A DNA stretch of 64,000 nucleotides, taken from IMG/VR virus record IMGVR_UViG_3300021431_004525; one strand, written 5' to 3'. Below are positions 3,428 to 61,093 of this stretch, in pieces (within the stretch, counting starts at the first letter, position 1; every line of letters begins with the position of its first letter). Both the position numbers and the translations under genes were made by a program. Source of the stretch: a virus (lineage: Duplodnaviria > Caudoviricetes). The notes beneath the pieces were generated by a model. That model saw nothing but the letters and a program-made list of their open reading frames with translations. It had not been told where the DNA came from and did no database searches.

Positions 3428-3669
3428 ATACCTTAATTTTTAGATGTTATTTGAAATCGGATGCAAAGGTAAGCATAATATTTGAGACCACCAAATTTTC
3501 AGCGTTTTTTTATGATTTGTTAAGGAATACCCATGAATTGTGTTAAAGTAATGTTAAACACCTCAAAATATTTGCATAATTCAAAGAAATGTATTACCTT
3601 TGCAGTGTCAAAAGTTAAGGGAATGACACCCCACAAGTTTAACATCTTTAATTTATAGGAGAGACAAAT

Positions 3670-3957
3670 ATGACTAACAAGGATTTGATTAAGGCTTTTA
3701 TCAACGGCAAAGAGGCACAGAATAAGTCAATGCGTACCAATGGTACAAAGTTGTTCAGTTATTTTACTTGCATCGCTCAGAAGACTTCTGACGGCATTCT
3801 ATTTAACGTCTGCAAGTATAGCACGACAACAAGCAAGCAGCAGACCTACACACGAGATGAACTTGAGATACACGGAAAAAAGTTTACAGAAGTAGGTGCG
3901 GACACATACATACCGCGTGGCACATGCGACCTCACACGCTACCATAAGGCAGCATAA
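3670..3957 (+). CDS. hypothetical early protein, C-terminal -KAA
   Basis: 95 aa; promoter at 3595; AGGAGAG upstream. Confidence 0.85.
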   Translation: MTNKDLIKAFINGKEAQNKSMRTNGTKLFSYFTCIAQKTSDGILFNVCKYSTTTSKQQTYTRDELEIHGKKFTEVGADTYIPRGTCDLTRYHKAA

Positions 3958-4007
3958 GGTTAAAATAAAATTTCATTTTTTTGTTTTTTGAATTTTTATA
4001 TTTATCT

Positions 4008-4045
4008 TTCCCCTTCAGTCCGTGATGGATAGAGGGGGGATTTAT
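4008..4045 (+). terminator. hairpin terminator with inner CAGTCCGnGAnGGATAG motif (second copy 7641-7675)
   Basis: TCCCCTT-CAGTCCGTGATGGATAG-AGGGGGA and TCCGTT-CAGTCCGAGAGGATAG-GACGGA, each followed by T-rich sequence. Confidence 0.6.
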
Positions 4046-4078
4046 TTAACATTTTTTAATAAATAAAAATTGGACATG

Positions 4079-4111
4079 TTGGAAACTATACTTCAAAGTT
4101 TCACCCTTGCC
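4079..4111 (-). ncRNA. 33-nt hairpin motif RNA, copy 1
   Basis: GGCAAGGGTGAAACTTTGAAGTATAGTTTCCAA; just downstream of minus promoter at 4131; no ORF. Confidence 0.55.
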
Positions 4112-4331
4112 CTTTGTCTTTCATTGACGATACAAAGGTACAAAGAATCTTTGAAATATCCAAATAAAAATCAATTTATTTTCAACGGGTTATTGTTTTT
4201 TAACAGAAAATTAACGAATTGCAAAACTATATTAAAAAATCGCCAAAAATTTGGTAGTCTCAGATTTTTGTTGTACCTTTGCATCAGAAATCAAGGAATA
4301 ATTCCGAGATAACATAAATTAGTTTTTTAAT

Positions 4332-4592
4332 ATGGAACGTTTAGAAATAAAAAAGTACGACAAAAATTTCGGTGCATATCTTGTTATTAATACAAGTGAG
4401 TGTGAATCGTGGGCTGTAGATGGTGACAAGCCATTAATTCATGAGGTGACATCAGCCGAGGACTTTATGAATTTAGGTTTAGAGGTCTCAACCGATGGCA
4501 GACCGTTCACAGACCTCAAAATAGGTGAAAAAGTTGCCGATATTGATTTTGGCGGTGACTATGAGGGTGTATATGTAATGAGAGTTGGTTAA
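4332..4592 (+). CDS. hypothetical early protein
   Basis: 86 aa; promoter at 4274. Confidence 0.8.
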   Translation: MERLEIKKYDKNFGAYLVINTSECESWAVDGDKPLIHEVTSAEDFMNLGLEVSTDGRPFTDLKIGEKVADIDFGGDYEGVYVMRVG

Positions 4593-4697
4593 CATCTTTT
4601 AACAATTCTGAAATGCTTTTTAACTAAAATAATTTGCATATTTCAGAAAAATGTATTACCTTTGCAGTGTCAAATTAAAAATCAATTCATATAAGTT

Positions 4698-5045
4698 ATG
4701 GTCAGAACAGAATATCAGATAAAATTGAAAAGCGGCTTATATGTCGGCTTAGTAAATTTCGGCAGAACCTATAAGGCTTGCAAGAAGGCTTGCCGTTTGA
4801 GTGGAATCACGGAAGATACCGCAAAGCGTCTCGCAATGGATTGGGATGGCGAATTAACAGAGTTTACGCTTCTCCCGTGTGTGATGTCCAACTATGGCGA
4901 AGGATGGGACGTGGAATGTTTTTGCGCCACGAAAGAGGAGGCAAAGGCAGACCTTCAATCCTACCGTGAGAATTGCCGTGATGCGGCATTCCAAATAAAG
5001 TGGAAATGGAGTGAAAGATACATCAGCCTCAAGGAGGTTGCATAG
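4698..5045 (+). CDS. hypothetical early protein, C-terminal -EVA
   Basis: 115 aa; promoter at 4657. Confidence 0.8.
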   Translation: MVRTEYQIKLKSGLYVGLVNFGRTYKACKKACRLSGITEDTAKRLAMDWDGELTEFTLLPCVMSNYGEGWDVECFCATKEEAKADLQSYRENCRDAAFQIKWKWSERYISLKEVA

Positions 5046-5221
5046 AGATACGCGAAGGGGTGGCTACCCTTCTATTAGGAAAAGTAACAGAGCCTAACGT
5101 AGAAGCAAGACCAAAGTGTTTACCCTCAAAACATTTTTTAACAATTCATTTAAGTTTCTTTAGCACGAAAAAGTTGCATAATTCAGATTTTATTCGTACC
5201 TTTGTAGTACAAAAATAAAGA

Positions 5222-5254
5222 GGTAGGAGTGAAATCCTAAAGTATGGTCTCCGA
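5222..5254 (+). ncRNA. 33-nt hairpin motif RNA, copy 2
   Basis: GGTAGGAGTGAAATCCTAAAGTATGGTCTCCGA; downstream of promoter at 5197. Confidence 0.55.
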
Positions 5255-5402
5255 CACGAGCCAATTAAAATTGTTAATATTCCTTAATTTTTAACATTCT
5301 TTAACAAAAATAACTGGGCAAAAATTTGTATATTCCAAAAAATTGTCGTACCTTTGCACTATCAAAAATGAATTAGTAATAACCCTTTAATATTAATAAG
5401 GT

Positions 5403-5564
5403 ATGGTAGCAATAAATAAAAATCATCTGAAAATTGGACGTTACACAATCCAACATGATTGGAATGAAGGTTTTGTTGTCCTTGATGAAGAAGGTCAGCA
5501 GTACGGAAGTGGCTACGACCATGTATGTGATGCAATCGAACAAGTTTTGATGTATAACGACTGA
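5403..5564 (+). CDS. small hypothetical protein (53 aa)
   Basis: MVAINKNHLKIGRYTIQHDW...; promoter at 5349. Confidence 0.65.
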   Translation: MVAINKNHLKIGRYTIQHDWNEGFVVLDEEGQQYGSGYDHVCDAIEQVLMYND

Positions 5565-5705
5565 GAATTGTTAAAGGAGGTTAAAACCAGTGTTAAAAAC
5601 TGTAAATCCCTTGGTTATTCCAAAAAATATTCGTAACTTTGCATCGTCAAAATAAGACAAGTAATTCACATTAAGTTTAATTCTAAAAAATAGGAGATTT
5701 AAGTT

Positions 5706-6245
5706 ATGGCAAAAAATTCAGTTGAAACCGCAATTCGTAACGCTGCAAGCAGCAAGGTGGCAGGCAAGTTCAATCTTCCGCAGTACAAGAAAGAAGGTAC
5801 AAAGCATTATGACGAGCGACAGAAGGCACTTCTGCACAAGCGTATCTGTGAGGAAATCGTAGCCTTTGCAGACAGCCACAAGGACATCCCATTCTATTTC
5901 ATCCTTCAAGTAGGTGTCTCTAAGGGTGCTTTCAAAATGTCGGAGTTTGAGAAGGGTTACAAGCAGTTCAAGGCTTGCAAGGTGGAGCAAGTTCACATGA
6001 TGGGCATGGAGTACAACAAGTACAACGGACTTGAGGGAAAGAAGATGTCAGACGTGACCATCCGTTTGGTGATGCGTTACTACGAGAAAGTTAGCAGTGA
6101 TTTCGTGACGTTCATCAACGACCTCAACAAGTCCGAGAAATTGGGCAAGCAGTGTGGGGCACGCGGCAATTACGAAGCACTCTGCAAGAACCTTAATATC
6201 CCCGTCAAGGAGACCGAGGACAAGCCAATGGCAGATGCAGCCTAA
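5706..6245 (+). CDS. hypothetical early protein, C-terminal -DAA
   Basis: 179 aa; promoter at 5634; AGGAG upstream. Confidence 0.85.
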   Translation: MAKNSVETAIRNAASSKVAGKFNLPQYKKEGTKHYDERQKALLHKRICEEIVAFADSHKDIPFYFILQVGVSKGAFKMSEFEKGYKQFKACKVEQVHMMGMEYNKYNGLEGKKMSDVTIRLVMRYYEKVSSDFVTFINDLNKSEKLGKQCGARGNYEALCKNLNIPVKETEDKPMADAA

Positions 6246-6246
6246 A

Positions 6247-6262
6247 TGTTCCACGTGGAACA
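6247..6262. promoter_or_regulatory. parS-like palindrome TGTTCCACGTGGAACA
   Basis: Perfect 16-bp palindrome fitting the bacterial parS consensus TGTTNCACGTGNAACA. Confidence 0.7.
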
Positions 6263-6379
6263 TCAACCAAAGGGGAAGGGTATAACGCTCTTCCCTTAAT
6301 TTTTTTAACTATGTTAAAAGTGTTAATTTGCTTGCGTAATTCAATTATTTTTTGTACCTTTGCAGTAGAAAAATTAAAA

Positions 6380-6412
6380 GGTAGGGGTGAAACTCTAAAG
6401 TATAGTCTCCAA
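6380..6412 (+). ncRNA. 33-nt hairpin motif RNA, copy 3
   Basis: GGTAGGGGTGAAACTCTAAAGTATAGTCTCCAA; downstream of promoter at 6355. Confidence 0.55.
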
Positions 6413-6604
6413 TACACCCCATTATATAAATGTGAATTTTATTTAATATTATATGAATGTTATATAATTTTAACATTTTCGTACTATACTATCAGAAATG
6501 TTAATTTAATGTTAAACATACGAATTTCCTTGGTTATTTGAAAAAATTGTATTACCTTTGCATCACAATTAAAAAACAAGTTAAACATTCAAATATTAAA
6601 TAAT

Positions 6605-6862
6605 ATGTTCGGAAAAGGTTCTAAATATAGTTTCAATGGTGACGGCAATTTAGATTGTCAGTTTCTCACCTCCACCTTTGAGGATGGATATCCATATTCT
6701 GTAGGTGTCGTGAATCATACCAAAAAAACGGTTAACCCTGTTCATGGCTACCACTACCCAAACAGATGCGCAAAAGGTCTTATGAACTATGCGCTTAAAT
6801 TAGGCTACACCTATGAGGACAGCGAAATGCCAAACAAATTGAATAAAACAATTAAAAACTAA
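6605..6862 (+). CDS. hypothetical early protein
   Basis: 85 aa; promoter at 6553. Confidence 0.75.
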   Translation: MFGKGSKYSFNGDGNLDCQFLTSTFEDGYPYSVGVVNHTKKTVNPVHGYHYPNRCAKGLMNYALKLGYTYEDSEMPNKLNKTIKN

Positions 6863-6867
6863 ATGAT

Positions 6868-6990
6868 ATGATATACTTTGTAAATGGTAAGGCTAAATTT
6901 GCCTTCGGTGACAAGTCAATGAACGACCATGCAAGACAAGTCATGGATAATCTGAAATGTAAAGAAACCGGAAAAAGATTTGCTGCTTAA
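6868..6990 (+). CDS. small hypothetical protein (40 aa), C-terminal -FAA
   Basis: MIYFVNGKAKFAFGDKSMNDHARQVMDNLKCKETGKRFAA; translated by hand. Confidence 0.65.
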   Translation: MIYFVNGKAKFAFGDKSMNDHARQVMDNLKCKETGKRFAA

Positions 6991-7083
6991 CATTCTTTAG
7001 CACGGAATATTTGCATATATCAGATTTTATGACTATCTTTGCACCATCAAATTTAAGTTTAACGTTTTAATTCATTTAAAGTT

Positions 7084-7608
7084 ATGGCATACGATATTAA
7101 CAACATCATGGCAAAGGAAAACGCAATGCGCGACCCTAAGAACGTAACAGAATGGAAACAGCAACGAGAAATGTTACGCGACTATCTGATACCCATCAGC
7201 ACTGCTGAAAACGTCTCTGTGGGCGAAATATACGGCTTCTGCCCCTATATCATTTATGTAAGGATGGACGCACTGAAGCGAGAGGATTGGCCGAATAACA
7301 TCGCCGAAAATTCCATCTATATCGACTTTAAAATAGACCTTTTTAACAAAAAGGTGGAAGTACATCAAAATGGGCATATTTGGCTTTCACCATACGACAA
7401 AACAACACCAAAGTACAAGTATCTCGCCATGAAGTCAATGCAAGACGTATTGGTCGACAATGGTGGCAAGAAGTTCCGCAAACAGGGCTATAAGGACATT
7501 AAAGACCTTGCCAACAAAATGCAGAAGTATTACGCACAAGTCATGGAAGCCGTCAATGACTACACCGATGGCTATCCATACAAACAAGGAACAAAACAAG
7601 CGGCATAA
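7084..7608 (+). CDS. hypothetical early protein, C-terminal -QAA
   Basis: 174 aa; promoter at 7034. Confidence 0.85.
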   Translation: MAYDINNIMAKENAMRDPKNVTEWKQQREMLRDYLIPISTAENVSVGEIYGFCPYIIYVRMDALKREDWPNNIAENSIYIDFKIDLFNKKVEVHQNGHIWLSPYDKTTPKYKYLAMKSMQDVLVDNGGKKFRKQGYKDIKDLANKMQKYYAQVMEAVNDYTDGYPYKQGTKQAA

Positions 7609-7721
7609 ACAGATTTTTTAAATTAATACTATGTTGTTAGTCCGTTCAGTCCGAGAGGATAGGACGGATTTTATTTTACTTACATTTTGAAACATAAATT
7701 AACATATTATCAATGGATGGG

Positions 7722-7783
7722 TCGGAGATTATACTCTAAGGTGTCACCCTTACCAATCATCCATCGTTGGTTTTACAACTCCG
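7722..7783 (-). ncRNA. 62-nt structured RNA containing copy 4 of the 33-nt motif
   Basis: CGGAG...CTCCG closing stem; first 28 nt identical to 670-697; motif GGTAAGGGTGACACCTTAGAGTATAATCTCCGA at 7722-7754. Confidence 0.55.
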
Positions 7784-7796
7784 AAACTCGTTTGTG

Positions 7797-7939
7797 TGAC
7801 TCATTGGGGAATCGAACCCCAAAGGTGAACATTTTTGCCGACAGCACCATCTGTTTCCGACTACTCATGCGCTGACACCATACTTTATCATAGGATTGGT
7901 AGTCCTAAAAGCCTCCAAGCCAGCCTTATCGTTTGAGCC
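7797..7939 (-). ncRNA. tRNA-like RNA (143 nt) with oversized variable region
   Basis: Acceptor GGCTCA/TGAGTC; T arm TGGGG-TTCGATT-CCCCA; anticodon-like arm TAGGA-CTACCAA-TCCTA; promoter at 7979. Confidence 0.6.
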
Positions 7940-8172
7940 TTTGTTATTTGAAAGAACGCCTTTTATTTCTTTTGACGATGCAAAGGTACAAAATAATCTT
8001 GAATTTCTATGTTAATTGACTGTTAAAAATTCGTTAAAAAACGTTCAATTGTTAAATAAACTAAATCCACTAAAAATAAATTCATTTTTTCTTGCATATA
8101 TCAGTTTTTTTCCGTACCTTTGCATCGTGAAATTAAAACAAATAGTAATAACTCTTTAATACATTATTTATT

Positions 8173-9276
8173 ATGACACAGATTTTGAATATCAACGGAC
8201 AGAGTAACGTGAGCGTTAATCCTAACACAGAGACGGGCGCACAGCGTGTAGCATGGCAGCAGTTCGGTACAATCTGCGAGAAGGGTGCAACCATCCACGA
8301 CGTTATGGCAGACGTAACAAGTGAAAACCGCATTAACTATGAGGTTGGCGAAATGCCACTGATGCGTGTACCTTCTGAAATGGTTGAGGCTATCCGCAAA
8401 GGTGAGGCTTTCGATTGGAATCCGTCAGTGTCCGACATCATCAGCACCCATAAGGCTACGCTGCGCACTGACAATAACGACACACTTGGTATCGTAGGTA
8501 AGGGCTACGGAATCGTGCAGAACAGCAAGGCTTTCGACTTCATGGACTTCATTAAGGAGGCAAGCGGTAGTGAACCCGTTATCGAATCCTATGGCGCACT
8601 TGGCTATGGCGAACGTATGTTCATCACTGCCACACTTGGTGAGGATTCGTATCTTAACCCTAACGACGCAATCAAGAACTATGTGGTGTTCACTAACTCA
8701 CATGATGGCAGTGGCGGTGTCATGGCTTTCTTCACCCCGATTCGTGTGATTTGTCAGAACACGCTGAACATGGCTATTAAGGGCTGCGCCAACAAAGTGG
8801 TGTTCAAGCACACTTCTAAGGTCGACGAGCGTCTTGATTGGACTATCGAGCGCAACCGCAAAATTGCTGCTGAACTTTTCAGCAAGTCAGTGAAATTTAG
8901 CGACAAGTTCATGGAGCGTATGCTTGGACTCAAGGAGGAGACCATCACTGCTGAATATGCACGAGACTTCGTAGGCAAGTTGTGTCTGACTGCTCCCGCC
9001 TTTGAACTTTGGAAGAAGGCTGACTTCAAGGCTGACCACGTTGAGGAAATCAGCACACGGACAAAGAACATTATGGCAGCCCTGACGGACAGCATCGAGA
9101 ATGGAGTAGGACAGGAGTACAATCGTGGCACAAAGGTGTGGCTGCTGAATGGTGTGACTACCTACCTTCAGAATGAGAAAAATTGGAAATCTCAGGAAGA
9201 CAAGTTCAACGCTATGATGTTCGGTAGCGCACAGAAGAAGGTCGAGGATGCTTACCAACTGCTGATGGCTGCGTAA
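8173..9276 (+). CDS. DUF932/DUF945 (phage/plasmid-like) protein, C-terminal -MAA
   Basis: Motifs LGIVGKGYGIVQNSKAF, NSHDGSG, TPIRVICQNTL, KHT, W.LLNGVT. Confidence 0.85.
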   Translation: MTQILNINGQSNVSVNPNTETGAQRVAWQQFGTICEKGATIHDVMADVTSENRINYEVGEMPLMRVPSEMVEAIRKGEAFDWNPSVSDIISTHKATLRTDNNDTLGIVGKGYGIVQNSKAFDFMDFIKEASGSEPVIESYGALGYGERMFITATLGEDSYLNPNDAIKNYVVFTNSHDGSGGVMAFFTPIRVICQNTLNMAIKGCANKVVFKHTSKVDERLDWTIERNRKIAAELFSKSVKFSDKFMERMLGLKEETITAEYARDFVGKLCLTAPAFELWKKADFKADHVEEISTRTKNIMAALTDSIENGVGQEYNRGTKVWLLNGVTTYLQNEKNWKSQEDKFNAMMFGSAQKKVEDAYQLLMAA

Positions 9277-9292
9277 GGTTTCACGTGGAACA
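9277..9292. promoter_or_regulatory. second parS-like site GGTTTCACGTGGAACA
   Basis: One mismatch to TGTTTCACGTGGAACA; immediately after the stop codon, as for the first site. Confidence 0.6.
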
Positions 9293-9297
9293 TACAC

Positions 9298-9510
9298 GGA
9301 GGGGGATGTGGTAGGGCTACTGCACCCCCTCCCTATGTACCCCCTACCTACGTATCCACCCTCTCAGCCACCCCCTATGTTTCCGGCTGACGGTAGCACA
9401 CGGTTTGCTCTGCAAATCTTTGAAAAAATTCTGGAAAAAAATTAAGGGGGTGGGGGTTATTCTATTAAAGGTTATTTCAAAAAAAATTCCAGAAAAATTT
9501 TTGAAAATCT
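9298..9510. other. G/C-run and A/T-run non-coding segment; candidate genome-end/packaging or origin region
   Basis: Runs such as CACCCCCTCCCTATGTACCCCCTACC, GGGGGTGGGGGT, AAAAAATTCTGGAAAAAAA and AAAAAAATTCCAGAAAAATTTTTT; lies at the boundary of the early region. Confidence 0.35.
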
Positions 9511-9640
9511 AAAATATGACATATATTAAACAAATGTACTAAATATGTAAATTTAAGTTTCTTTAACTAAAAAGATTTGGCTATTTTGGCAAAAATGAGT
9601 AATTTTGCATTTGAAATTATTTTAAAATGAAAAAATACTT

Positions 9641-13856: not shown

Positions 13857-14177
13857 ATGAATTTATTTTTAAAATTTGCGAAGAACAATACCGGTTACAG
13901 TGTTAAGAATTTATTTGTAATCATAATAGTAATAATAGGTTGTTTATTATTATTAGTACCGTTAGTATCTTTAACGATTGAGGCGATTTACATGCATACG
14001 ATTGCCACAGACTTAATGGGTATGTCCGCATACATTACGTCTGTTTCCGCATTATTTGGTATTGCGGGCTATACAAAGGTTAGTTCTGAGAAACATGAAA
14101 GACCGTTTACACCACCTAATAATGAAGAGGAAAATGGAAATGAAATAGTTGAATCAGAGGAAATTGCTAATGAATAG
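13857..14177 (+). CDS. two-TM membrane protein (holin-like candidate)
   Basis: Two hydrophobic helices, charged C-terminal tail, late motif upstream. Confidence 0.5.
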   Translation: MNLFLKFAKNNTGYSVKNLFVIIIVIIGCLLLLVPLVSLTIEAIYMHTIATDLMGMSAYITSVSALFGIAGYTKVSSEKHERPFTPPNNEEENGNEIVESEEIANE

Positions 14178-14267
14178 GTAATAATATAGTAGATGGCACA
14201 AATATCGAATAATACAAATCTTGATGATATTTATTAGAAAGATGGCGAATTAAATTCGTATTATAAT

Positions 14268-15017
14268 ATGAATAAGAGACTTATAAGACTAACAGAATCA
14301 GACCTTCATAGGATTGTAAAAGAATGTGTAAAACGTCTTATTAATGAAGATAAAGAATATGTAAGTGTTACTGATTTCAATTATGATGGTAAAGAGTTAT
14401 ATGATGTAGGCGATGGTGATTCATTTTGTTATCTCCCTTGTGACATATATGGTACGCCGAAACTATATTATGCAGATTGTCACTTTTCGTGCGCACTACA
14501 ATCACTTGAAGACATAATCTATTCTTTTTATAAGGGTAATATAGAGAGTTTAATAGATGAAGACGATATACATAGCATAGCAGAAGAATTATGGCTTAAC
14601 TGCATAAGTGAGCCTGGAAGGGTATTTTATAAAAAGTATATCGTAGTTGGCTTTGATGGACACATACCATCTTGTGAATATGTTAAAGGTGTGATTGAAT
14701 ATTTGGGCGGTAATTCAAGCAATTATTGTGTAGTATATAATGAAGAAGATTCAGTAAAAGAAATACCTTGTAATTTTTTTCTTGCTCAAGGGATAAATGG
14801 GAAAGATAAACCAACTATTATGGAAGTTCCAAGAGAACTCAAGATGATTTATGACAAGATGCACACAAAAAGGGATGCCGTTGATAGAAAATTTCCTATG
14901 AATATGACAAGGGCTGAATATTATTGGCTTACAAGGCAAGAAAACAAAAAAAGTTATGATAAAGTAATAATAGAAGTTATCAATCAATACTTAAAACAGA
15001 ACTTGGTATTAAACTAA
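14268..15017 (+). CDS. leader-tagged putative internal virion protein
   Basis: N-terminus MNKRLIRLTESDLHRIVKECVKRLINE. Confidence 0.75.
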   Translation: MNKRLIRLTESDLHRIVKECVKRLINEDKEYVSVTDFNYDGKELYDVGDGDSFCYLPCDIYGTPKLYYADCHFSCALQSLEDIIYSFYKGNIESLIDEDDIHSIAEELWLNCISEPGRVFYKKYIVVGFDGHIPSCEYVKGVIEYLGGNSSNYCVVYNEEDSVKEIPCNFFLAQGINGKDKPTIMEVPRELKMIYDKMHTKRDAVDRKFPMNMTRAEYYWLTRQENKKSYDKVIIEVINQYLKQNLVLN

Positions 15018-15047
15018 ATGAGCAACCTTGATTGGCTGCTCATTTTT
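15018..15047. terminator. bidirectional terminator
   Basis: ATGAGCAACC-TTGATT-GGCTGCTCAT-TTTT between convergent genes. Confidence 0.7.
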
Positions 15048-15052
15048 GTATA

Positions 15053-15742: not shown

Positions 15743-15803
15743 TTATATATGTCGATACATATGTTTTTATTTTAGGTAATTATATATTATTTGACCCGAC
15801 TTG

Positions 15804-16061
15804 TTAAATTCTTGATATAGAATCTTTCATTCTAATATTAGATAATATCCCTTGTAGAGTATTTACCATAGAATGTATCTCTTGCCTATATGAATAGGGG
15901 ACTTTGCCCTCTAAATCATATAAATTATGCATTTCATTTTTTATAAGCTGTTCATAATTAGCATCATAATCATAAATATCACTTTCGTTAAGGATATTTT
16001 TAATTGCTTCTTTAACTACTTTATGAACATCTTGTTCTGTAAGTTTAATTCTTTTCTTCAT
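15804..16061 (-). CDS. leader-tagged small protein
   Basis: MKKRIKLTEQDVHKVVKEAIKNILNE. Confidence 0.75.
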   Translation of the reverse strand: MKKRIKLTEQDVHKVVKEAIKNILNESDIYDYDANYEQLIKNEMHNLYDLEGKVPYSYRQEIHSMVNTLQGILSNIRMKDSISRI

Positions 16062-16112
16062 ATATCTTATATTAAATTATTATTGGGTCTAATTCTATAT
16101 AGATGCCTTATT

Positions 16113-18116
16113 TTATTTGTTTTTTGAACGTCTGTCGAATACTTCCTTTTCATCTACGATGTAGACTCTTGGGCTTCTTACGCCAGTTTTCTCTTCGATG
16201 TAGTACCAAACCATGCTTTCAACTTCTTCTTCGATTGCATCCATTGGCATATCAGGAGAAGATACCGCAACCTCTACTGACACATCATATCCGTCAAATC
16301 CATCTGGCTGAAGTATGATTTGTCTTACCAAGACTGATGAATAGTTATTGGAATTGTCAATATATTCATCCTTTACTGATTGTAATTCTTGTACTTTCTC
16401 AGGTGTTAACTCATCGAACATTCCGTCGACGTTAAGTTTCATAATTGCACCATATGAATAGTCTGACAAATCGTCATCCTCTTCTGGATACCACGACTCT
16501 TTAAGTTGTTTTTTCAGTGATTTGATTTTATTAGTAAGTGGTGTTGTATCTTTTCCATCATCCTCATAGTCAGAAATTTGTTGACGTAATTTCCTTATTT
16601 GTCTGTTAATTTCTTTATTCGCCTCATCTCTTTTTAACCTATGTTTTTTAGAGTCTTCGTTATCCTGTGATGAATGTACTTGGCCTGTATCTATTTCCTC
16701 ATGGATTTTTCCTTCGTTTGCAGTTACTTTTTCAACTTTGTTAAGAGGAACTGACATTAATGTCCATGTTTTACCATCTTTCTGATAATCGACATCACAT
16801 GTTTCTTCCCATGTCATAAGGTGTGTACCGAAATCTTTAATGACACCTTCTATATTTTGAGTTCTACCGTGTACTATTACTTTATCACCGGTTTGGAATT
16901 GTCCGTCAGATGATTTGGCATGATATGTACCGTTGGCTTGTTGCATTGCCTTTATATATTCTCTCATATCATAACTCATTTCATCATCTTGTTCTTGTTT
17001 CCAATGTTCATCATCGTCTGACAAATCATCGATGGCTTCTTTAACCATATTTCTTATTTTGCTTTCCAATGCCGCTGTTGGGTGTTTAATTTCCTTTCTT
17101 TTTGAAAGAACCAATCGACGTTCTCTGTCTGATGGTTTATTCCAATGTACGCCTTCCTCTGCCCAATCAGGTTTGTTGAGGAAATTATACCAGTAACCAC
17201 CTTCTCCACCCCATGCGATGAGGTTATTTGGGTCTGTAGCATTCCACCCTTTTGTTACGTCCCAATATTTAGCCTTTTGAATGTACGGTTTTATCTGATT
17301 AAGGTCATCGACTAACATGCTTTCATTTCCTTGCCCTTCAATATAACAATGGAAAAGGTATTGACCGGTACTTTCTCTCAGATGTCTTTTAGATTCATCA
17401 AATGCACGGTTAAGGGAACCTTTACGATGTAACGGACGTTTATCAGCAGCAGCCATTGCACGTTTATCGGCACGTTTCATATTTTCTTTTTCTTTATTGT
17501 GCATCTTATCTTGGTCTTTTCTCGCAAAATAAGCATCTACGCCATCATGTGCAAATTTATGTGCGTTGATTCTGTAATTGTTTGAGAAATCATCCGGATG
17601 ATTTGGTTTGTCATAATTTCCGGCATATACTTCTGATAACACCTTATTTACGGTTTCCCTTATTTTAGACTCAAGTGGGTGTTCTCTTTCTGCTTCTGCT
17701 TTACCATAGTCGGCAAGTGCATCAAAACCGGGTGCTACATCATAAGGATTGAGATTGAAGTCATTCACATAGTTGTCAACAGTATCTGAGAAAGCGTTGA
17801 ACTTATCAAGTTCTTCTGCGTTTTTACCGTATCTTGCCTGTGTGTCCTTTGCTTGGTCATCGATTTCTCTCCAATCGGAATCCATTTCTTCTTTCTTACG
17901 GTCAGGATAAACAGGACCTTCAGGACCGTTATTGATATTATCATATTTAGCGAGTGAGTCAAGGAAATCATCATCCATTGTTTCCCCGGTTACACTTGCA
18001 AGGTTATTCATATCGTTCATATAGTCGCCTGATACGCCATTGGCATCAATAGTTTCGGACAATATTTTATTGATATGTTCCTTTAATTGTTCTCTATTTA
18101 ATTTCTTATTAGCCAT
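16113..18116 (-). CDS. leader-tagged multi-module polyprotein (667 aa)
   Basis: Repeated junctions ILSE, LESKIRETVNKVLSE, HLRE, LESKIRNMVKE, IHEE, QLKE. Confidence 0.8.
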   Translation of the reverse strand: MANKKLNREQLKEHINKILSETIDANGVSGDYMNDMNNLASVTGETMDDDFLDSLAKYDNINNGPEGPVYPDRKKEEMDSDWREIDDQAKDTQARYGKNAEELDKFNAFSDTVDNYVNDFNLNPYDVAPGFDALADYGKAEAEREHPLESKIRETVNKVLSEVYAGNYDKPNHPDDFSNNYRINAHKFAHDGVDAYFARKDQDKMHNKEKENMKRADKRAMAAADKRPLHRKGSLNRAFDESKRHLRESTGQYLFHCYIEGQGNESMLVDDLNQIKPYIQKAKYWDVTKGWNATDPNNLIAWGGEGGYWYNFLNKPDWAEEGVHWNKPSDRERRLVLSKRKEIKHPTAALESKIRNMVKEAIDDLSDDDEHWKQEQDDEMSYDMREYIKAMQQANGTYHAKSSDGQFQTGDKVIVHGRTQNIEGVIKDFGTHLMTWEETCDVDYQKDGKTWTLMSVPLNKVEKVTANEGKIHEEIDTGQVHSSQDNEDSKKHRLKRDEANKEINRQIRKLRQQISDYEDDGKDTTPLTNKIKSLKKQLKESWYPEEDDDLSDYSYGAIMKLNVDGMFDELTPEKVQELQSVKDEYIDNSNNYSSVLVRQIILQPDGFDGYDVSVEVAVSSPDMPMDAIEEEVESMVWYYIEEKTGVRSPRVYIVDEKEVFDRRSKNK

Positions 18117-22629: not shown

Positions 22630-23976
22630 ATGGCACAACATATAAATAAAGACGATTTGAAGAAAATCATTAAGAAGATTATTAAGGAATCTGTTGGTAT
22701 TCCATCAGAGGAAAACTATTATATTAGCGTAATGGTTCCAAGGATAAAGTCTTGGATGGATGAAGTTTATCAAGATTGGGGCGGTATCAATGCTGTTTCA
22801 CCTGAAGCATTAACTGATTTCAGCAACCGTAATGACTATGAAGAGTCTCTTGATGCTTTTGCACACGAATTTAATGTAGATAGAGAAGAACTTAGACCAG
22901 CATTTGATAAAGCAATTGAGATTGCACATAGTAAATTAAAGGAAGACTTACTTGGAGAGGCTAAGTTTGTTAACCAATTCACACCATATACAGATGATGA
23001 GAAAAGGACAAATTTTGAATATTTGAAAACCGGTTTTGGTAGAAGTCCTGAAGAAAGAAATCCGTCTTATGCAGCGGCAAAAAAAGCAGCAGAAGAAAGA
23101 CGTAAGCAAAAAGAGGCACAGAAACAAAATGGTGAAGTGAGCGAAACTATACATTATACCGCAGAAAGAATGGCAGCAGACAACAACTATCGCATGAAAT
23201 GGAATGAAAAATATCTTAAGCCATTACTTGATAAATGCGACACAATATTAAACGGTTCTGAAAACGCTTCTGTACAAGAAATTATCGACCTTTACAAAAG
23301 GCTTAACACAATTAGAAGCTGTAACCCAATTAAGTATGATGTAAGACTAATAGAGTTACAGGATGAGATTAAGGATAGATTGGAAAAGTTGGTTGAATTT
23401 ATTAGACAAATGATGACTAATAGGCCAAATGAATCCAAGAAACGTGTTAATAATCAAACATTAAATTGTAATAGAAATATGAATAAGAAACTTATAAGAT
23501 TAACAGAAAATGACCTTCACAAGATTGTAAAAGAGTCTGTTATTAGAGTATTGAACGAGAAACTCGTATATAGAAATGCAAAATTTTACACTCCGACACC
23601 AATACCAAGTGACGGTGGACCAATGTATAACGATACTTTTGCTTTTAAGGAATTTCAAAAACTTATAGATGGGTGTAATAGACAATTGAAATTTCCTGTA
23701 CTTAACAGAAAACAAGGCATAGATGCGAGTGAATTCCTTATTCAACAGTTTGAGAATTGGGTAAATGAATATGGCAAATATATTGTATCTAATCAACCAA
23801 TTGGAAAATTAGTTAAAGGAAATGGAATTCAAAATAAGTTCGGAAAAATAGAATATGTGAAAGGTGATGGGGGATACGCAAGAATTTTTGCTGATTGTGT
23901 TAATAGTGGGACACCGTATTACGATGAAGTAGCAGATACTTTTGACCCGTATCCCGATGAAGAAGTGTATTTTTAG
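22630..23976 (+). CDS. leader-tagged multi-module polyprotein
   Basis: INKDDLKKIIKKIIKE at N-terminus; internal MNKKLIRLTENDLHKIVKESVIRVLNE. Confidence 0.8.
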   Translation: MAQHINKDDLKKIIKKIIKESVGIPSEENYYISVMVPRIKSWMDEVYQDWGGINAVSPEALTDFSNRNDYEESLDAFAHEFNVDREELRPAFDKAIEIAHSKLKEDLLGEAKFVNQFTPYTDDEKRTNFEYLKTGFGRSPEERNPSYAAAKKAAEERRKQKEAQKQNGEVSETIHYTAERMAADNNYRMKWNEKYLKPLLDKCDTILNGSENASVQEIIDLYKRLNTIRSCNPIKYDVRLIELQDEIKDRLEKLVEFIRQMMTNRPNESKKRVNNQTLNCNRNMNKKLIRLTENDLHKIVKESVIRVLNEKLVYRNAKFYTPTPIPSDGGPMYNDTFAFKEFQKLIDGCNRQLKFPVLNRKQGIDASEFLIQQFENWVNEYGKYIVSNQPIGKLVKGNGIQNKFGKIEYVKGDGGYARIFADCVNSGTPYYDEVADTFDPYPDEEVYF

Positions 23977-23987
23977 TATGAGCAGTT

Positions 23988-24085
23988 AAGCAACCATCAG
24001 GCCAAACTTAATCTCACTCCATTTGCGAACCAAGCCAATTGACTTGTCAAACATATGGGCGAATCTCTCTGATTCGCTCATTTTT
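23988..24085 (+). repeat. conserved ~98-bp 3' element with terminator, copy A
   Basis: Aligns nearly end to end with 59719-59815; ends ATGGGCGAATC-TCTCT-GATTCGCTCAT-TTTT. Confidence 0.9.
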
Positions 24086-24190
24086 ATTGTGTTCCAACTA
24101 TACTTTGTGCCAACCGCTATATCATTGTCAAACAAAAAAGGTGGGGAAATTAATCCTCACCTTTAACATTCCGACTTATTGTGACTTTAC

Positions 24191-24562
24191 TTATTTTACT
24201 TCGACACCACGATTACGAAGAGTCAGATTAAACAACATCAAATACTTTTTATACTGTTCCTTAGTTAGTATATAAGACATATACTTGATGTGTTTGTTAA
24301 TACTGTTTTTAAGCAAAGTCTCTCTTGTAGAGCCGTCATAACCAAGAACTGAAAACTCAATATCACGTTCATACTCATCGATTATTTCCTTAACGCCATC
24401 TTTCTGGTCGTTTGTCAGTTCAAGCGTGCTGTATAAATGATTGTAGTTTGAAATTTTAAGCCCATAACGAGCAACTTCATTAAGTGCGTTCATTCCCTCA
24501 TTCTCAGCATTTGCACAGATACCCATGCACATAAACATTACGATAAATAAAATCTTCTTCAT
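24191..24562 (-). CDS. secreted/periplasmic hypothetical protein
   Basis: Signal peptide MKKILFIVMFMCMGICANA. Confidence 0.75.
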   Translation of the reverse strand: MKKILFIVMFMCMGICANAENEGMNALNEVARYGLKISNYNHLYSTLELTNDQKDGVKEIIDEYERDIEFSVLGYDGSTRETLLKNSINKHIKYMSYILTKEQYKKYLMLFNLTLRNRGVEVK

Positions 24563-39090: not shown

Positions 39091-39629
39091 GGGAACTATA
39101 TATGTGTTGACTCCAAAGTAATATTTATTTAAAAAATAACTTGAATAATACGTATAAAACGATATGAAGAGATTAGTAAAATTAACGGAAGGAGACCTGC
39201 ATAGGATTGTAAAAGAATCGGTAAAAAGGATATTGAGAGAGGGTTTGAATGACTACGACTATTATTTTAGTGTCCCAGATTATGATTATGACCAAAATGA
39301 ACCGTGGGAAGACACATTTGGTGTGAAAGAGACCATAAACGGATTGGAAATATATGACTACTCGAATGAACTCATATGTGTACTTAGAGGTAAACGGCTA
39401 AGAGATTACAAGACCGGACCTGACCAAGCAGGTGCGGATATGTCAAAGATTAATGATGACAAGTTGATTGCTGATATGAGGAAAGCACGTGGTTATTGAT
39501 TAAGCCACTTAGCACAGCCTTAGTTCATCACATATGGGAATCATCCGATAAACTTGCCGAACATGCCCAAAAAGCGTTCCTATTGGGACACTTTTTCTTG
39601 CGTTTAGTGTCAACAGATATATAGTTCCC
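39091..39629. mobile_element. 539-bp cassette bounded by 21-bp terminal inverted repeats
   Basis: GGGAACTATATATGTGTTGAC (39091-39111) versus GTCAACAGATATATAGTTCCC (39609-39629), 20/21 match; encloses late motif, one gene and a terminator; no transposase. Confidence 0.6.
39164..39499 (+). CDS. leader-tagged small protein
   Basis: MKRLVKLTEGDLHRIVKESVKRILRE. Confidence 0.8.
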   Translation: MKRLVKLTEGDLHRIVKESVKRILREGLNDYDYYFSVPDYDYDQNEPWEDTFGVKETINGLEIYDYSNELICVLRGKRLRDYKTGPDQAGADMSKINDDKLIADMRKARGY

Positions 39630-55957: not shown

Positions 55958-56005
55958 AAAACATTGGATAGATACTTATATTTATATTAAATAGGATTGT
56001 ATACA

Positions 56006-58063
56006 ATGCCAACAAAACCAACGATATTTCAAAAATTGACAAATATATTGTCAAATAGCAATGACATACAGACGGCCGTCAAAAAGGTAAATTCATATGG
56101 CCTTGATGACTCTGATATCCTTTTTAGAACTAAGAACAAGGATGAGTATGACAGTAAACTTAAGCAGCTAAGACAAGGCCATCTTCTTGCAAAGCAGTGG
56201 AAAAAAGCAACTTATGAATTAACGAATAAATCACTTGCCGGTCTAAACGAGGTAAAAATGATGTATCGGGATGCTGACTTGATGGATTTATTTCCGGAAA
56301 TCGGTACAGCACTTGATATAGTTTCAGAGGAAGCATGCTTTATCAAGAAAGATGCCTTTATGGTTAATGTCACGTCTAAATCAGAACGTGTAAAGTCGAT
56401 TATACAAGACTTACTTGTGAATAGGCTTCAGATTAATGTAATGCTTCCTATGATTTGCCGAAGCATGTGTAAGTATGGCAACACGTTTATGCTGCTTGAC
56501 ATTAACGATGAAAACGGTGTCGTTAACTGGAAACAGTTACCGGTTTATGAAATCGAGAGATATGAAAACGGTATGGAAAATCCATATGCCGGTGCTTATG
56601 TTAATCTCAATAATATTAACTTGAACCAAACAGATTCAACAAAATTCGTGTGGGTTGGCCAATCTGAATTTATACCATATAGGAATTGGCAGATAGCGCA
56701 TTTCAGATTACTTTACGATTCATTACTATTGCCGTATGGTGTATCATATCTTAATAAGGCAAGGCGACACTGGCGCATGCTTTCAATGATGGAGGATATG
56801 ATGCTGATTTATCGTCTTGAACGTTCAATTGAAAGGCGTGTGTTTAAGGTAAACGTTGGTAATATAGATGAGGATGATGTTCCTGCATATGTAGAGGACA
56901 TTGCAAATAATTTCAAGAGGACACCAATCATTGACCCAATGACCGGTCAATTGGACTTGAAGAAAAACATCTTGAATGTATCAGAAGATTTCTTCGTTCC
57001 GGTGCGTGATGAAAATGCAAACAGCCCTATCGAGACTTTACAAGGTGCTCAGAATATGACAGCGATGGACGATATTAAGTTCGTTCAAAATAAAGTCGTA
57101 ACGGCATTGAGAGTGCCTAAATCATTCTTGAATTTTGAAGAGGCTACTGGTGATGGTAAAAACTTGTCATTACTTGATGTAAGGTTTACAAGAACGGTGA
57201 ACCGTATTCAGCAGGCATTACTTATGGAGTTGAATAAGATTTGCATAATTCACCTTTATTTGTTAGGTTTCGAGGACGAACTTACTAATTTCAGCCTTAC
57301 GATGAATAACCCATCTTCTCAGGCCGAAATGCTTGAATTGGAGAACATGGCAAAGAAGGTGACAACGGCAAAGGATGCAATATCAGATGCCGGTAATGGA
57401 ATACAACTCATGTCATGGACAAGGGCTTGTAAGGAAATAATGGGATGGTCAGATAAGGAAATCGAAGAGAACTTACAAGAAATAAGACTTGAAAAGGCTC
57501 TTGCAGCAGAACTTGAAAAGACGGCACAGATTATCAAACGTACAAGAATATTTGATAAGGTCGATAATATCTATGGTGAGCCGGGTGCTGAATATTCAGC
57601 CGGTGCTCCGGGAGAAGACGGAGAAGAAGGCGGAATGTCAGGTGGCGGCGGTGCCGGAGGATTCGGCGGTGGCGCAGTAGGAAGCGAGGACTTCGATTTC
57701 GGTGATGAAGAGGGCGAAGAAACCGGTTCAGAAGGTGAAATGGATATGAACACTGCCGCAGATGAAGAAGGTACTGATATGGGCGGTGGTGAAGAAACAG
57801 AAGAAACCGAACCTACAACTTCAACAATGGGTGAAACGTATATGAGGAATATGTTGAAGAATATCATTGATGAACAAAGGGAAATGCAGAAAGATATAGT
57901 TAGGAAAAGTAAGAAATATACAGGCAAACTTGCTGAAAGGAAAAATAAATACTATAAGGAAAAGAACCGTATAAACGAAAATGTGCCAATATATCAGAAA
58001 AATTTCCTGATTAATGAAGATTTAAATTCAATGATTAAACAATTGGGTAACTTAAACGATTAA
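56006..58063 (+). CDS. portal protein (T4 gp20-like)
   Basis: SYLNKARR...MMEDMMLIYRLERSIERRVFKVNVGN, EDFFVP, IETLQG, ALRVPK; acidic Gly-rich tail. Confidence 0.92.
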   Translation: MPTKPTIFQKLTNILSNSNDIQTAVKKVNSYGLDDSDILFRTKNKDEYDSKLKQLRQGHLLAKQWKKATYELTNKSLAGLNEVKMMYRDADLMDLFPEIGTALDIVSEEACFIKKDAFMVNVTSKSERVKSIIQDLLVNRLQINVMLPMICRSMCKYGNTFMLLDINDENGVVNWKQLPVYEIERYENGMENPYAGAYVNLNNINLNQTDSTKFVWVGQSEFIPYRNWQIAHFRLLYDSLLLPYGVSYLNKARRHWRMLSMMEDMMLIYRLERSIERRVFKVNVGNIDEDDVPAYVEDIANNFKRTPIIDPMTGQLDLKKNILNVSEDFFVPVRDENANSPIETLQGAQNMTAMDDIKFVQNKVVTALRVPKSFLNFEEATGDGKNLSLLDVRFTRTVNRIQQALLMELNKICIIHLYLLGFEDELTNFSLTMNNPSSQAEMLELENMAKKVTTAKDAISDAGNGIQLMSWTRACKEIMGWSDKEIEENLQEIRLEKALAAELEKTAQIIKRTRIFDKVDNIYGEPGAEYSAGAPGEDGEEGGMSGGGGAGGFGGGAVGSEDFDFGDEEGEETGSEGEMDMNTAADEEGTDMGGGEETEETEPTTSTMGETYMRNMLKNIIDEQREMQKDIVRKSKKYTGKLAERKNKYYKEKNRINENVPIYQKNFLINEDLNSMIKQLGNLND

Positions 58064-59361: not shown

Positions 59362-59718
59362 ATGAAATACACTATAAAAGAATCAGAATTAAAAAGTCTG
59401 GTAAGAAAACATATCGTTGAGGCTCTTAAACAACGTGAAAAACGTTCAAATGAAGATAGGCTGAAACAGTTTATAAAAGAATCAGACCTTAGCAGAATTG
59501 TGAAAGAGTCTGTGAATAGAGTGATTAAAGAAGAACATTACAACGATGATGCAGCTCTACCTTACATAACTAAAGCATTTGATGAATTAATCAATAAAAT
59601 AGGCAATGCTGCTGTTGCTATTAATGGTGAAAGTTGGGATGCTGCAATATCTAATGACCCATTTTCAAAAGCTTTAAAACTTATTTATCAAGCAAAACGT
59701 GTATTGCTTAATGCTTAA
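59362..59718 (+). CDS. double-leader-tagged small protein
   Basis: IKESELKSLVRKHIVE and IKESDLSRIVKESVNRVIKE. Confidence 0.8.
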   Translation: MKYTIKESELKSLVRKHIVEALKQREKRSNEDRLKQFIKESDLSRIVKESVNRVIKEEHYNDDAALPYITKAFDELINKIGNAAVAINGESWDAAISNDPFSKALKLIYQAKRVLLNA

Positions 59719-59815
59719 AAGTAACCACCAGTCCAACTCTAATTTCAGACCATTTACGAACTAAGCCAATGGACTTATCTAACATATGGGCGAATCTCTA
59801 TGGTTCGCTCATTTT
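59719..59815 (+). repeat. conserved ~97-bp 3' element with terminator, copy B
   Basis: Homologous to 23988-24085. Confidence 0.9.
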
Positions 59816-59880
59816 TTATATGTTAAAATTTGTTAAATTAAAGAAAAAGTAGTATATTTGCAGTATATTTGAAAATTTTA

Positions 59881-60373: not shown

Positions 60374-61093
60374 ATGAGTAAATTATATAATAAGGAACAA
60401 CTTGTTGAAATTAAGAAAGGCCAGACAGGCTATGGTCTTCTTATTGAACATGATGGGCATATTATCGGAAAATCTGATGTTATCAATCAGATAAAGGAAG
60501 ATATTGATGCACATCATCAATTCGTCATACCAGATGATTTTGTTGTTTCTGCCGTTTTTCAGAAATACGGTATCAAAAACGCAAACGGAAGAATATATCC
60601 GGAAGAAATCCTTAAAAGGGAAGTACAGAAATATTTGGAAACAAGAGTGGCAATGCATAATGCAGTCGGTGCGTTAGACCATCCGGCTTCATCTTCATTG
60701 TCAGGACATGATGTGTCACATAACATACTTGATTTAAGATGGGAAGGACACACTCTTGTAGGTGAAATGAAACTACATCTTTCACCCGGTTATAAACGTT
60801 ACGGAATTTGTTCTACAAGTGGCGACTTGGCCGCTAACATGATTCTTGACGGTATTCTTATTGGCGTATCATCAAGAGGCGTAGGCAGTGTTGAACAGAA
60901 ATTCGGTACATCAGTGGTTGGTGATGACTTTGAATTGGTCGGTTGGGATATAGTTTTAGAGCCGTCAACACCGTCTGCTTGGATTAAACAAAACTCAGAA
61001 GAACTTGAACCGTTTATTGAAACTGACTTAACAAAAAAAGGTAATGTCTTATCAGAGAAAATTGAAAAAATCGGTAAGATTTTGAATATTTAA
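60374..61093 (+). CDS. prohead protease (T4 gp21-like)
   Basis: NANGRIYP, GALDHP, VSH, GVSSRGVGS, DIVLEPSTPSA. Confidence 0.93.
   Translation: MSKLYNKEQLVEIKKGQTGYGLLIEHDGHIIGKSDVINQIKEDIDAHHQFVIPDDFVVSAVFQKYGIKNANGRIYPEEILKREVQKYLETRVAMHNAVGALDHPASSSLSGHDVSHNILDLRWEGHTLVGEMKLHLSPGYKRYGICSTSGDLAANMILDGILIGVSSRGVGSVEQKFGTSVVGDDFELVGWDIVLEPSTPSAWIKQNSEELEPFIETDLTKKGNVLSEKIEKIGKILNI

Follow-up and report, generated by a model that had tools for sequence, protein, structure and literature searches.

The stretch of phage DNA analyzed here, 64 kb in length and hereafter referred to as the window, contains a direct repeat of 106 nt in two copies (copy 1, 23988-24093; copy 2, 59719-59824) that are 82% identical, as determined by repeat search and alignment across the window; the initial annotation had proposed that the segments 23988-24085 and 59719-59815, lying 36 kb apart, are homologous, and this was borne out. 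An 18-mer common to both copies (ACATATGGGCGAATCTCT) occurs exactly twice in the window, versus 0.08 occurrences expected. Each copy begins 0-12 nt after the stop codon of a plus-strand gene (22630-23976 and 59362-59718, respectively), and BLASTP alignment of the two products reveals a common leader of 20 residues (LTENDLHKIVKESVIRVLNE vs. IKESDLSRIVKESVNRVIKE; E 6e-5) and no relationship outside it, in agreement with the earlier description of a leader joined to unrelated cargo in front of each element. The leader is also conserved in the DNA, as had been noted at that time, and is repeated at 14290, 23501, 39183, and 59474 of the window. On the plus strand, the element contains stop codons in all frames, and its end is formed by a hairpin (ATGGGCGAATC/GATTCGCTCAT) and a subsequent T-run. 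A third copy of the same kind of element, diverged and frameshifted, is located at 39497-39605, and its alignment with the 3′ end of the transposase gene described below (80/103) scores 71, versus a shuffle maximum of 26. The 9-mer ACATATGGG at 39531, previously regarded as a homologous anchor at approximately 39530, was rejected as such because its position within the third copy differs from that in the other copies. Searches of INPHARED phage records by blastn and megablast returned no match, and exact k-mers of the window were unmatched in IMG/VR (30-mer) and in JGI metagenome contigs (33-mer). The phage is very large, with a matching contig of 391,794 bp in ENA.

As judged from its sequence, the repeated element corresponds, when read on the opposite strand, to the final ~35 codons of an IS1595-family transposase gene. 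The minus-strand reading of copy 1 yields a 22-codon tail, MFDKSIGLVRKWSEIKFGLMVA, followed by a stop codon. Two pattern scans of IMG/VR contigs, performed with a 15-mer located in the hairpin, provided 28 copies of the element with the general 22-codon minus-strand frame MFDKSIGLVRKWSEIRVGLMAA and a stop codon at the same position; frame and stop are intact in 23 of the 28 copies and disrupted in the remaining five, including copy 2 of the window. Codon differences among the copies are mostly synonymous, including AGT/TCT exchanges for serine and CGN/AGR exchanges for arginine, and the pairwise differences per site at minus-strand codon positions 1, 2, and 3 amount to 0.22, 0.18, and 0.42; the synonymous exchanges and the third-position excess indicate that the element was shaped as a minus-strand coding sequence. 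The frame extends to a full protein of 329-339 amino acids in five contigs (L061, L056, L024, L035, and L017), and the proteins of L061 and L056 comprise the DDE_Tnp_IS1595 catalytic domain (PF12762; E 1e-43 and 6e-45, respectively) and an N-terminal zinc ribbon (PF12760; E 7e-9 and 2e-9) and match the NCBIfam model for IS1595 (NF033547; E 3e-59). When the full-length transposase P0001 was aligned with the window by tblastn, copy 1 (24102-23989) matched residues 292-329 with 82% identity (E 7e-14) and copy 2 (59827-59726) matched residues 294-327 with 76% identity (E 2e-9), and both stubs lie past the end of the Pfam domain (residue 295), only residues ~292-329 being left. Furthermore, tblastn revealed a decay series in other contigs, ranging from full genes through internally deleted genes and longer 3′ pieces to minimal stubs, and detected no full-length transposase in the 64-kb window. 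In a search covering one genome per prokaryote species, the same transposase was found at up to 95% identity; most of the hits came from Prevotella of the rumen and gut and from other Bacteroidales, and cultured isolates were among them. A further transposase match, in a phage contig of 89 kb (G001, the contig of L001; C1:16368-16817), falls within a 342-codon frame that one TGA interrupts; the gene has either become a pseudogene recently or points to recoding of the stop codon in this phage. Two other readings of the element were rejected: plus-strand coding under recoded stops, because the variation falls at minus-strand third positions and the element trails different genes in different frames, and a tmRNA-like tag, suggested by the ...LMAA end, because ARAGORN detected none and the tail is the transposase C-terminus.

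The architecture of the transposon was obtained from its intact relatives. In an alignment of five full-length copies, homology ends at the transposase stop codon on one side and begins ~120 nt 5′ of the start codon on the other, at a motif of ~30 nt. An nhmmer profile of this motif identified it as a ~30-bp inverted repeat with the consensus GG(C/T)AATnATATAGnnnTTGrCmCAAA, and inverted pairs, 0.5-3.4 kb apart, enclose the transposase gene (or its stub) and a convergent gene. The element ends are GG...CC, and perfect 8-bp target duplications surround 31 of the 43 inverted-repeat pairs; in the next 8 nt outward, used as a control, at least seven matches were found in 0 of the 43. By eye, duplications were evident for some phage units only, and the question was decided by the automated test, which included bacterial copies. 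The typical unit length is 2.3-2.7 kb, and reduced forms are also present, such as a transposase-less unit of 532 bp (L047) that retains its target duplication. L047 is among the 31 pairs with a perfect duplication, whereas the window unit 15775-16107 was assessed apart from them. Target duplications enclose the leader gene in L035, L017, and L047, and since duplications and inverted repeats thus surround it, the transposon carries the leader gene as a passenger. The 8-bp targets consist almost exclusively of A and T (TTTATTTA, AATTTTTA, AAAATAAA, and similar), which makes terminator T-runs and promoter regions likely landing sites, and this would likely favor insertion between genes and beside earlier copies.

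The marks of the IS1595 family are 8-bp duplications, a zinc ribbon (in all groups but IS1016), and this DDE domain (PMC8101967). The full-length relatives carry the DDE domain, the zinc ribbon, inverted repeats, and the 8-bp duplication; the two copies in the window have no transposase domain, no inverted-repeat pair, and no target duplication, with one inverted repeat left in copy 1 and none in copy 2 according to nhmmer. Because neither copy has both inverted repeats or a duplication, their transposon origin rests on homology and not on intact ends, and the two copies are remnants, not members able to move.

At locus 1, the transposase 3′ remnant occupies 23986-24102 on the minus strand (residues 292-329, with the TAA stop at 23986-23988; tblastn) and contains, on the plus strand, the hairpin with its T-run at 24055-24086 (ATGGGCGAATC-TCTCT-GATTCGCTCAT followed by TTTTT; terminator scan and fold). 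The left terminal inverted repeat GACAATGATATAGCGGTTGGCACAAAG (24101-24132, minus strand; nhmmer E 1.5e-5) is joined directly to the remnant, one transposon end and the gene stub thus being kept. The preceding leader module with cargo Z (23460-23976, plus strand), delimited by a repeat family (81% to 14249-14329), a leader scan, and strain alleles, comprises ~20 conserved nt before the ATG at 23479 and the leader MNKKLIRLTENDLHKIVKESVIRVLNE and is fused in frame with a resident ORF starting at 22630. A second hairpin flanked by an A-run and a T-run (AAAGGTGGGGAAATTAATCCTCACCTTT; 24134-24166) lies between copy 1 and the gene 24191-24562; where strains lack the relic, no other structure separates the two convergent genes, and this hairpin is therefore probably a bidirectional terminator. 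At locus 2, the remnant (59719-59827, minus strand; residues 294-327, peptide MLDKSIGLVRKWSEIRVGLVVTFKH; tblastn) is decayed, with a TAG within the hairpin loop codons and the natural stop lost, and its hairpin, which includes one G-U pair, and T-run are located at 59786-59818 on the plus strand. The gene before copy 2 (59362-59718, plus strand) comprises a resident N-terminus, a transposon-type leader (hybrid), and cargo X4, and the Bacteroidota-type promoter of the next gene (TATATTTGCA) lies 3′ of the hairpin. Many copies of this promoter type (...TTTG...N19...TAnnTTTGCA) are present in the window, in the early region 3541-9609 and before the gene at 59869 (59815-59862), and mirror-image copies precede minus-strand genes.

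Three further units were identified in the window. The third unit, 39091-39629, is bounded by the inverted repeats 39091-39117 (plus strand) and 39602-39629 (minus strand) (GGGAACTATATATGTGTTGACTCC/GGGAACTATATATCTGTTGACAC; nhmmer E 0.023 and 4.8e-5) with a target duplication of only 5/8, and it contains a leader gene (39164-39499, plus strand), the frameshifted remnant 39497-39605 (minus strand) of another transposase subfamily, and its own hairpin and T-run at about 39569-39600 (fold). The fourth unit is a transposase-less cassette of 333 bp (15775-16107), in which inverted repeats surround a leader gene (15804-16061, minus strand) only and which is flanked by the perfect 8-bp duplication TTATTTTA (15767-15774 and 16108-16115). 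The fifth unit (14177-15050, plus strand) contains the leader gene 14268-15017, one inverted repeat 5′ of it (14177-14203), and a hairpin with a T-run (15018-15050); homology of this hairpin to the transposase hairpin was rejected, the score being 23 versus a shuffle maximum of 29.

The hairpin lies at the center of the interpretation. A consensus terminator scan matched 24055-24081 plus TTTTT with an 11-pair stem, and the form of an intrinsic terminator, i.e., a G+C-rich stem-loop followed by a T-run, is present in copy 1, copy 2, and 32 of 59 intact genes. In these 32 of the 59 distinct full-length genes, no 34-nt segment of the entire antisense strand folds more stably than the hairpin site, which is located at a distance of 77-96 nt from the transposase stop and has the T-run next to it. 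Two sequence versions of the hairpin, along with a compensatory variant, encode the same peptide (K-M/A-S-E/Q-S-E-R-F), and the stub boundaries of the tblastn decay series cluster just upstream of it; among phage stubs, conservation of the hairpin is partly ascertainment because the copies were gathered with a 15-mer from it. These features point to the hairpin as a putative intrinsic terminator of the convergent passenger, located inside the transposase reading frame, and this role would account for the retention of the stub after the remainder of the transposase gene has disappeared.

On this basis, it is considered highly probable that the element is the tail of an IS1595 transposase gene doubling as the 3′ UTR and terminator of a passenger gene and that leader-cargo-stub modules are mobile. 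The intact transposon consists of ~30-bp inverted repeats around the transposase gene and a convergent passenger, with the two stops abutting or overlapping and with a passenger product composed of the leader MNKKLIRLTESDLHRIVKESVNRVLNE and variable cargo. The hairpin and the passenger-strand T-run, ~60-95 nt inside the 3′ coding end of the transposase gene, would terminate the passenger mRNA. Where the transposase gene is deleted, the stub is retained with the passenger, an outcome seen twice in the window (23986-24132 and 59719-59827). Modules move by transposition, as target duplications in relatives and at 15775-16107 show. As the strain alleles show, they are also replaced, presumably via short-homology recombination whose joints lie within the leader and at either the hairpin/T-run or the inverted-repeat end. 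Leader and element are linked primarily because both belong to one passenger-carrying transposon with inverted repeats and 8-bp duplications.

Near-identical strains of the window phage, located via exact-protein look-ups, provide alleles with different cargo at both loci, and the cargo is not invariant. At locus 1, the inverted repeat, the stub, and cargo Z are present in the window, L242, and L243; L244 and L246, with a 100% identical neighbor gene, are without them and have another C-terminal domain ending 63 nt from the neighbor, and homology between the alleles stops ~4 nt beyond the outer end of the inverted repeat. At locus 2, both flanks of L247 and L249 are ~99% identical to the window, and the difference, aligned against the window-type L248, spans 59486-59808 on the plus strand, a segment made up of the 3′ portion of the leader, cargo X4, and the transposase remnant as far as the hairpin. 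To the left, the alleles join at a GAATCAG microhomology within the leader (59479-59485) and, to the right, at TCATTTTTTAT after the hairpin (59809 onward); the alternative allele lacks a stub and contains a different hairpin of its own. In five closely related phage contigs, the DNA to the right of the stub is 85-100% identical, the cargoes are unrelated, the stubs are only 77-86% identical, and the switch point is at the 3′ half of the hairpin. The amino acid sequence of cargo X4 is 94% identical to that of the passenger in L036, where leader and stub are likewise present although the neighboring gene of this phage is only 26% identical. As a separate observation, strains differ within one gene (window 22630-23976, L243:4587-5972, and L244:4436-4918) by whole modules at leader-like linkers, ESKKR[VI]KKSEIVEAIKDV, namely, by a 92-residue insert, a 13-residue indel, and an alternative C-terminal domain, and domain shuffling at such linkers seems general, beyond the transposon-borne leader.

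The initial annotation had viewed leader and element as homology arms between which cargo is swapped, and a dedicated cassette-exchange system with leader and 3′ element as fixed arms is conceivable though rather doubtful. Such a system would account for alleles at locus 2 that break in the leader and at the element-terminal T-run, for the common flanks and different cargoes of the five related phages, and for the presence of cargo X4 with leader and stub in phages with diverged neighbor genes. The element, however, lies within the exchanged segment and is more divergent between related phages than the flanks; the joints are microhomologies of 7-11 nt, not arms of 100 nt; one boundary at locus 1 is the inverted-repeat end of the transposon; and transposase coding accounts for the sequence of the element. 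Hence, the signature of cassette exchange is genuine, and leader and element do belong to one modular unit, with joints at the places that the initial annotation had predicted; the element is not a fixed arm or dedicated recombination site, and the supposed arms are more aptly regarded as the termini of modules derived from a transposon.

The preferred reading, a transposase tail retained with a passenger gene, is further informed by the genes upstream of the other copies, which were tabulated as had been suggested. A convergent ORF lies within 90 nt in 25 of the 28 stubs and is leader-tagged in 23 of these 25; leader-tagged genes constitute only a few per cent of the window ORFs. The passenger ORFs consist of the leader MNKKLIRLTESDLHRIVKESVNRVLNE followed by unrelated sequence, and their stop codons often overlap the transposase stop in TTAA. 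By these counts, this transposon lineage carries a leader gene nearly always. In the opposite direction, a leader-first scan provided 91 newly assessable leader genes, with a convergent stub in 14 and any IS mark in 25; with the known loci counted in, ~30-40% of leader genes bear an IS mark, and among the bacterial copies the strict leader is found in the nearest convergent ORF for 16 of 45. This weak reverse association indicates that the leader family is wider than the transposon. Passenger proteins and their neighbors matched nothing in Pfam or PHROGs, the ESM Atlas yielded hypothetical viral clusters and nothing else, and a literature search retrieved neither the leader string nor IS1595 elements with such passengers in phages. 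At many loci, a conserved stretch of ~45 nt (GATATTTATTATTAAAATAACGAATTAATACGTATTATAAT) is located 5′ of the leader ATG, between the inverted repeat and the gene (14227-14267 and 39120-39163 in the window); it is probably the passenger promoter, unlike the TTTG/TAnnTTTG type found elsewhere in the window.

These associations also bear on whether the stubs could be inert scars of old insertions, with a hairpin without role and a leader association reflecting where insertions are tolerated. The decay in copy 2 and in 39497-39605, along with a complete relative of 401 kb that has stubs and no transposase, would fit such an origin. Against it, the hairpin and T-run are kept in two sequence versions at the same place in intact genes, stub boundaries cluster just upstream of the hairpin, nearly all assessable stubs (23/25) adjoin a leader gene, and the leader gene lies inside the target duplications; it is thus unlikely that the stubs are inert.

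Less probable still is that the plus strand specifies a regulatory RNA, whether cis-acting (the alternative raised in the initial annotation) or small, in the sense of a structured 3′ UTR whose function would extend past termination. If the hairpin terminates, the element would indeed form the 3′-terminal part of the passenger mRNA, and the fold of copy 2 exceeds that of shuffled sequences (z -3.3). Copy 1 outside the hairpin, by contrast, does not fold better than shuffles (z -1.6), the element matches no Rfam family (a search of the whole window with Rfam 15 at the gathering threshold detected only a tRNA at 1528-1601), and the variation tracks minus-strand codon positions, not pairing. Finally, a minus-strand micro-protein of 22-31 residues (MFDKSIGLVRKWSEIRVGLMAA) that is functional and selected independently, consistent with the conserved frame, stop, and many synonymous differences in 23 of the 28 copies, is very improbable because the peptide is the transposase C-terminus, five copies including copy 2 of the window are disrupted, the upstream codons contain stops in copy 2, L042, and L029, the ATG is absent in L003, L004, L006, and L022, and the synonymous pattern is expected from stubs of diverged functional genes.

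With the element read as the tail of a passenger-carrying IS1595 transposon, a role for the leader itself may be considered. Most leaders end in L/I-x-E (RVLNE, RILKE, and RVIKE), the gp21 cleavage consensus. The head module is T4-like according to Pfam (Portal_T4, Peptidase_S77, and Gp23; window 60374-61093 and 55997-58063, and the gene tables of L247 and L248), and Peptidase_S77 is the family of the T4 gp21 prohead protease. The L/I-x-E terminus, together with a T4-type S77 prohead protease in the phage, would fit a leader that serves as a capsid-targeting tag released by the protease. A more speculative proposal, advanced here tentatively, is that the IS1595 lineage may be a dedicated vehicle for polymorphic phage proteins, with the leader as a capsid-targeting and protease-release tag and with the leader and the tail terminator as recombination joints, so that cargo would be shuffled between giant phages and Prevotella chromosomes. 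If true, a transposon would thereby drive the diversification of effector proteins that are packaged or injected.

Several known systems resemble these units in part. IS1595-family insertion sequences with passenger genes are referred to as transporter IS (Siguier, Gagnevin & Chandler 2009, cited in PMC3129680), and the derivatives recognized in PMC3129680, citing the same work, are IS with passenger genes, transposase-less cassettes, and MITEs. The present elements agree with transporter IS in the zinc-ribbon and DDE_Tnp_IS1595 transposase, the short inverted repeats, the 8-bp duplication, and the extra genes inside. They differ in that a single polymorphic gene family, in which variable cargo follows a constant N-terminal leader, fills the passenger slot, the passenger gene is convergent with that of the transposase and stops at a hairpin within the transposase frame, the elements circulate in very large phages and in Prevotella/Bacteroidales genomes, and the window has transposase-less derivatives only. 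PMC3129680 also names mobile insertion cassettes and MITEs, an example being IS231-MIC231 of Bacillus cereus. The features of a mobile insertion cassette (IS ends, no transposase, and sometimes a gene) are present in 15775-16107 (333 bp) of the window and in L047 (532 bp), partly present in 39091-39629, and absent from copies 1 and 2, which are relics and not mobilizable cassettes because one or both inverted repeats are missing and they are fused into resident genes.

Integron cassettes are comparable in that promoter-proximal variable genes are each followed by a conserved, imperfect palindrome of ~60-130 bp and the cargo is strain-variable; unlike attC, the 3′ element here is the tail of a transposase gene and is associated with 8-bp duplications and DDE-type ends. 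Polymorphic proteins of the Rhs/CdiA-CT type have a constant N-terminal part and exchangeable C-terminal modules, and the internal proteins of T4 carry a capsid-targeting sequence. The leader proteins resemble both in having a constant N-terminal tag and unrelated C-terminal domains exchanged by recombination; in addition, the phage has T4-type head genes, including the Peptidase_S77 protease, and the leader ends in L/I-x-E. In contrast to these systems, no toxin or immunity pair was seen here, and leader genes also occur in bacterial contigs.

Accordingly, IS1595 with passengers and its relics are of an already known kind, and the new features are the constant-leader passenger family, a putative terminator embedded in the transposase tail, the survival of the transposase tail as a 3′ element, and the mapped strain-level exchanges. 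The design is compact in that the likely terminator of the passenger is written in the transposase frame, which would explain why the stub outlives the gene. With regard to annotation, many such conserved 3′ elements in Bacteroidota phages can be labeled IS1595 relics. The exchanges offer a concrete mechanism for the replacement of domains in accessory proteins, with breakpoints mapped in natural strains. Furthermore, a conserved non-coding repeat becomes a readable record that giant phages of the rumen have an active gene-carrying IS family in common with their Prevotella hosts, and the genes carried by this shared IS are the phage's own leader-tagged accessory proteins.
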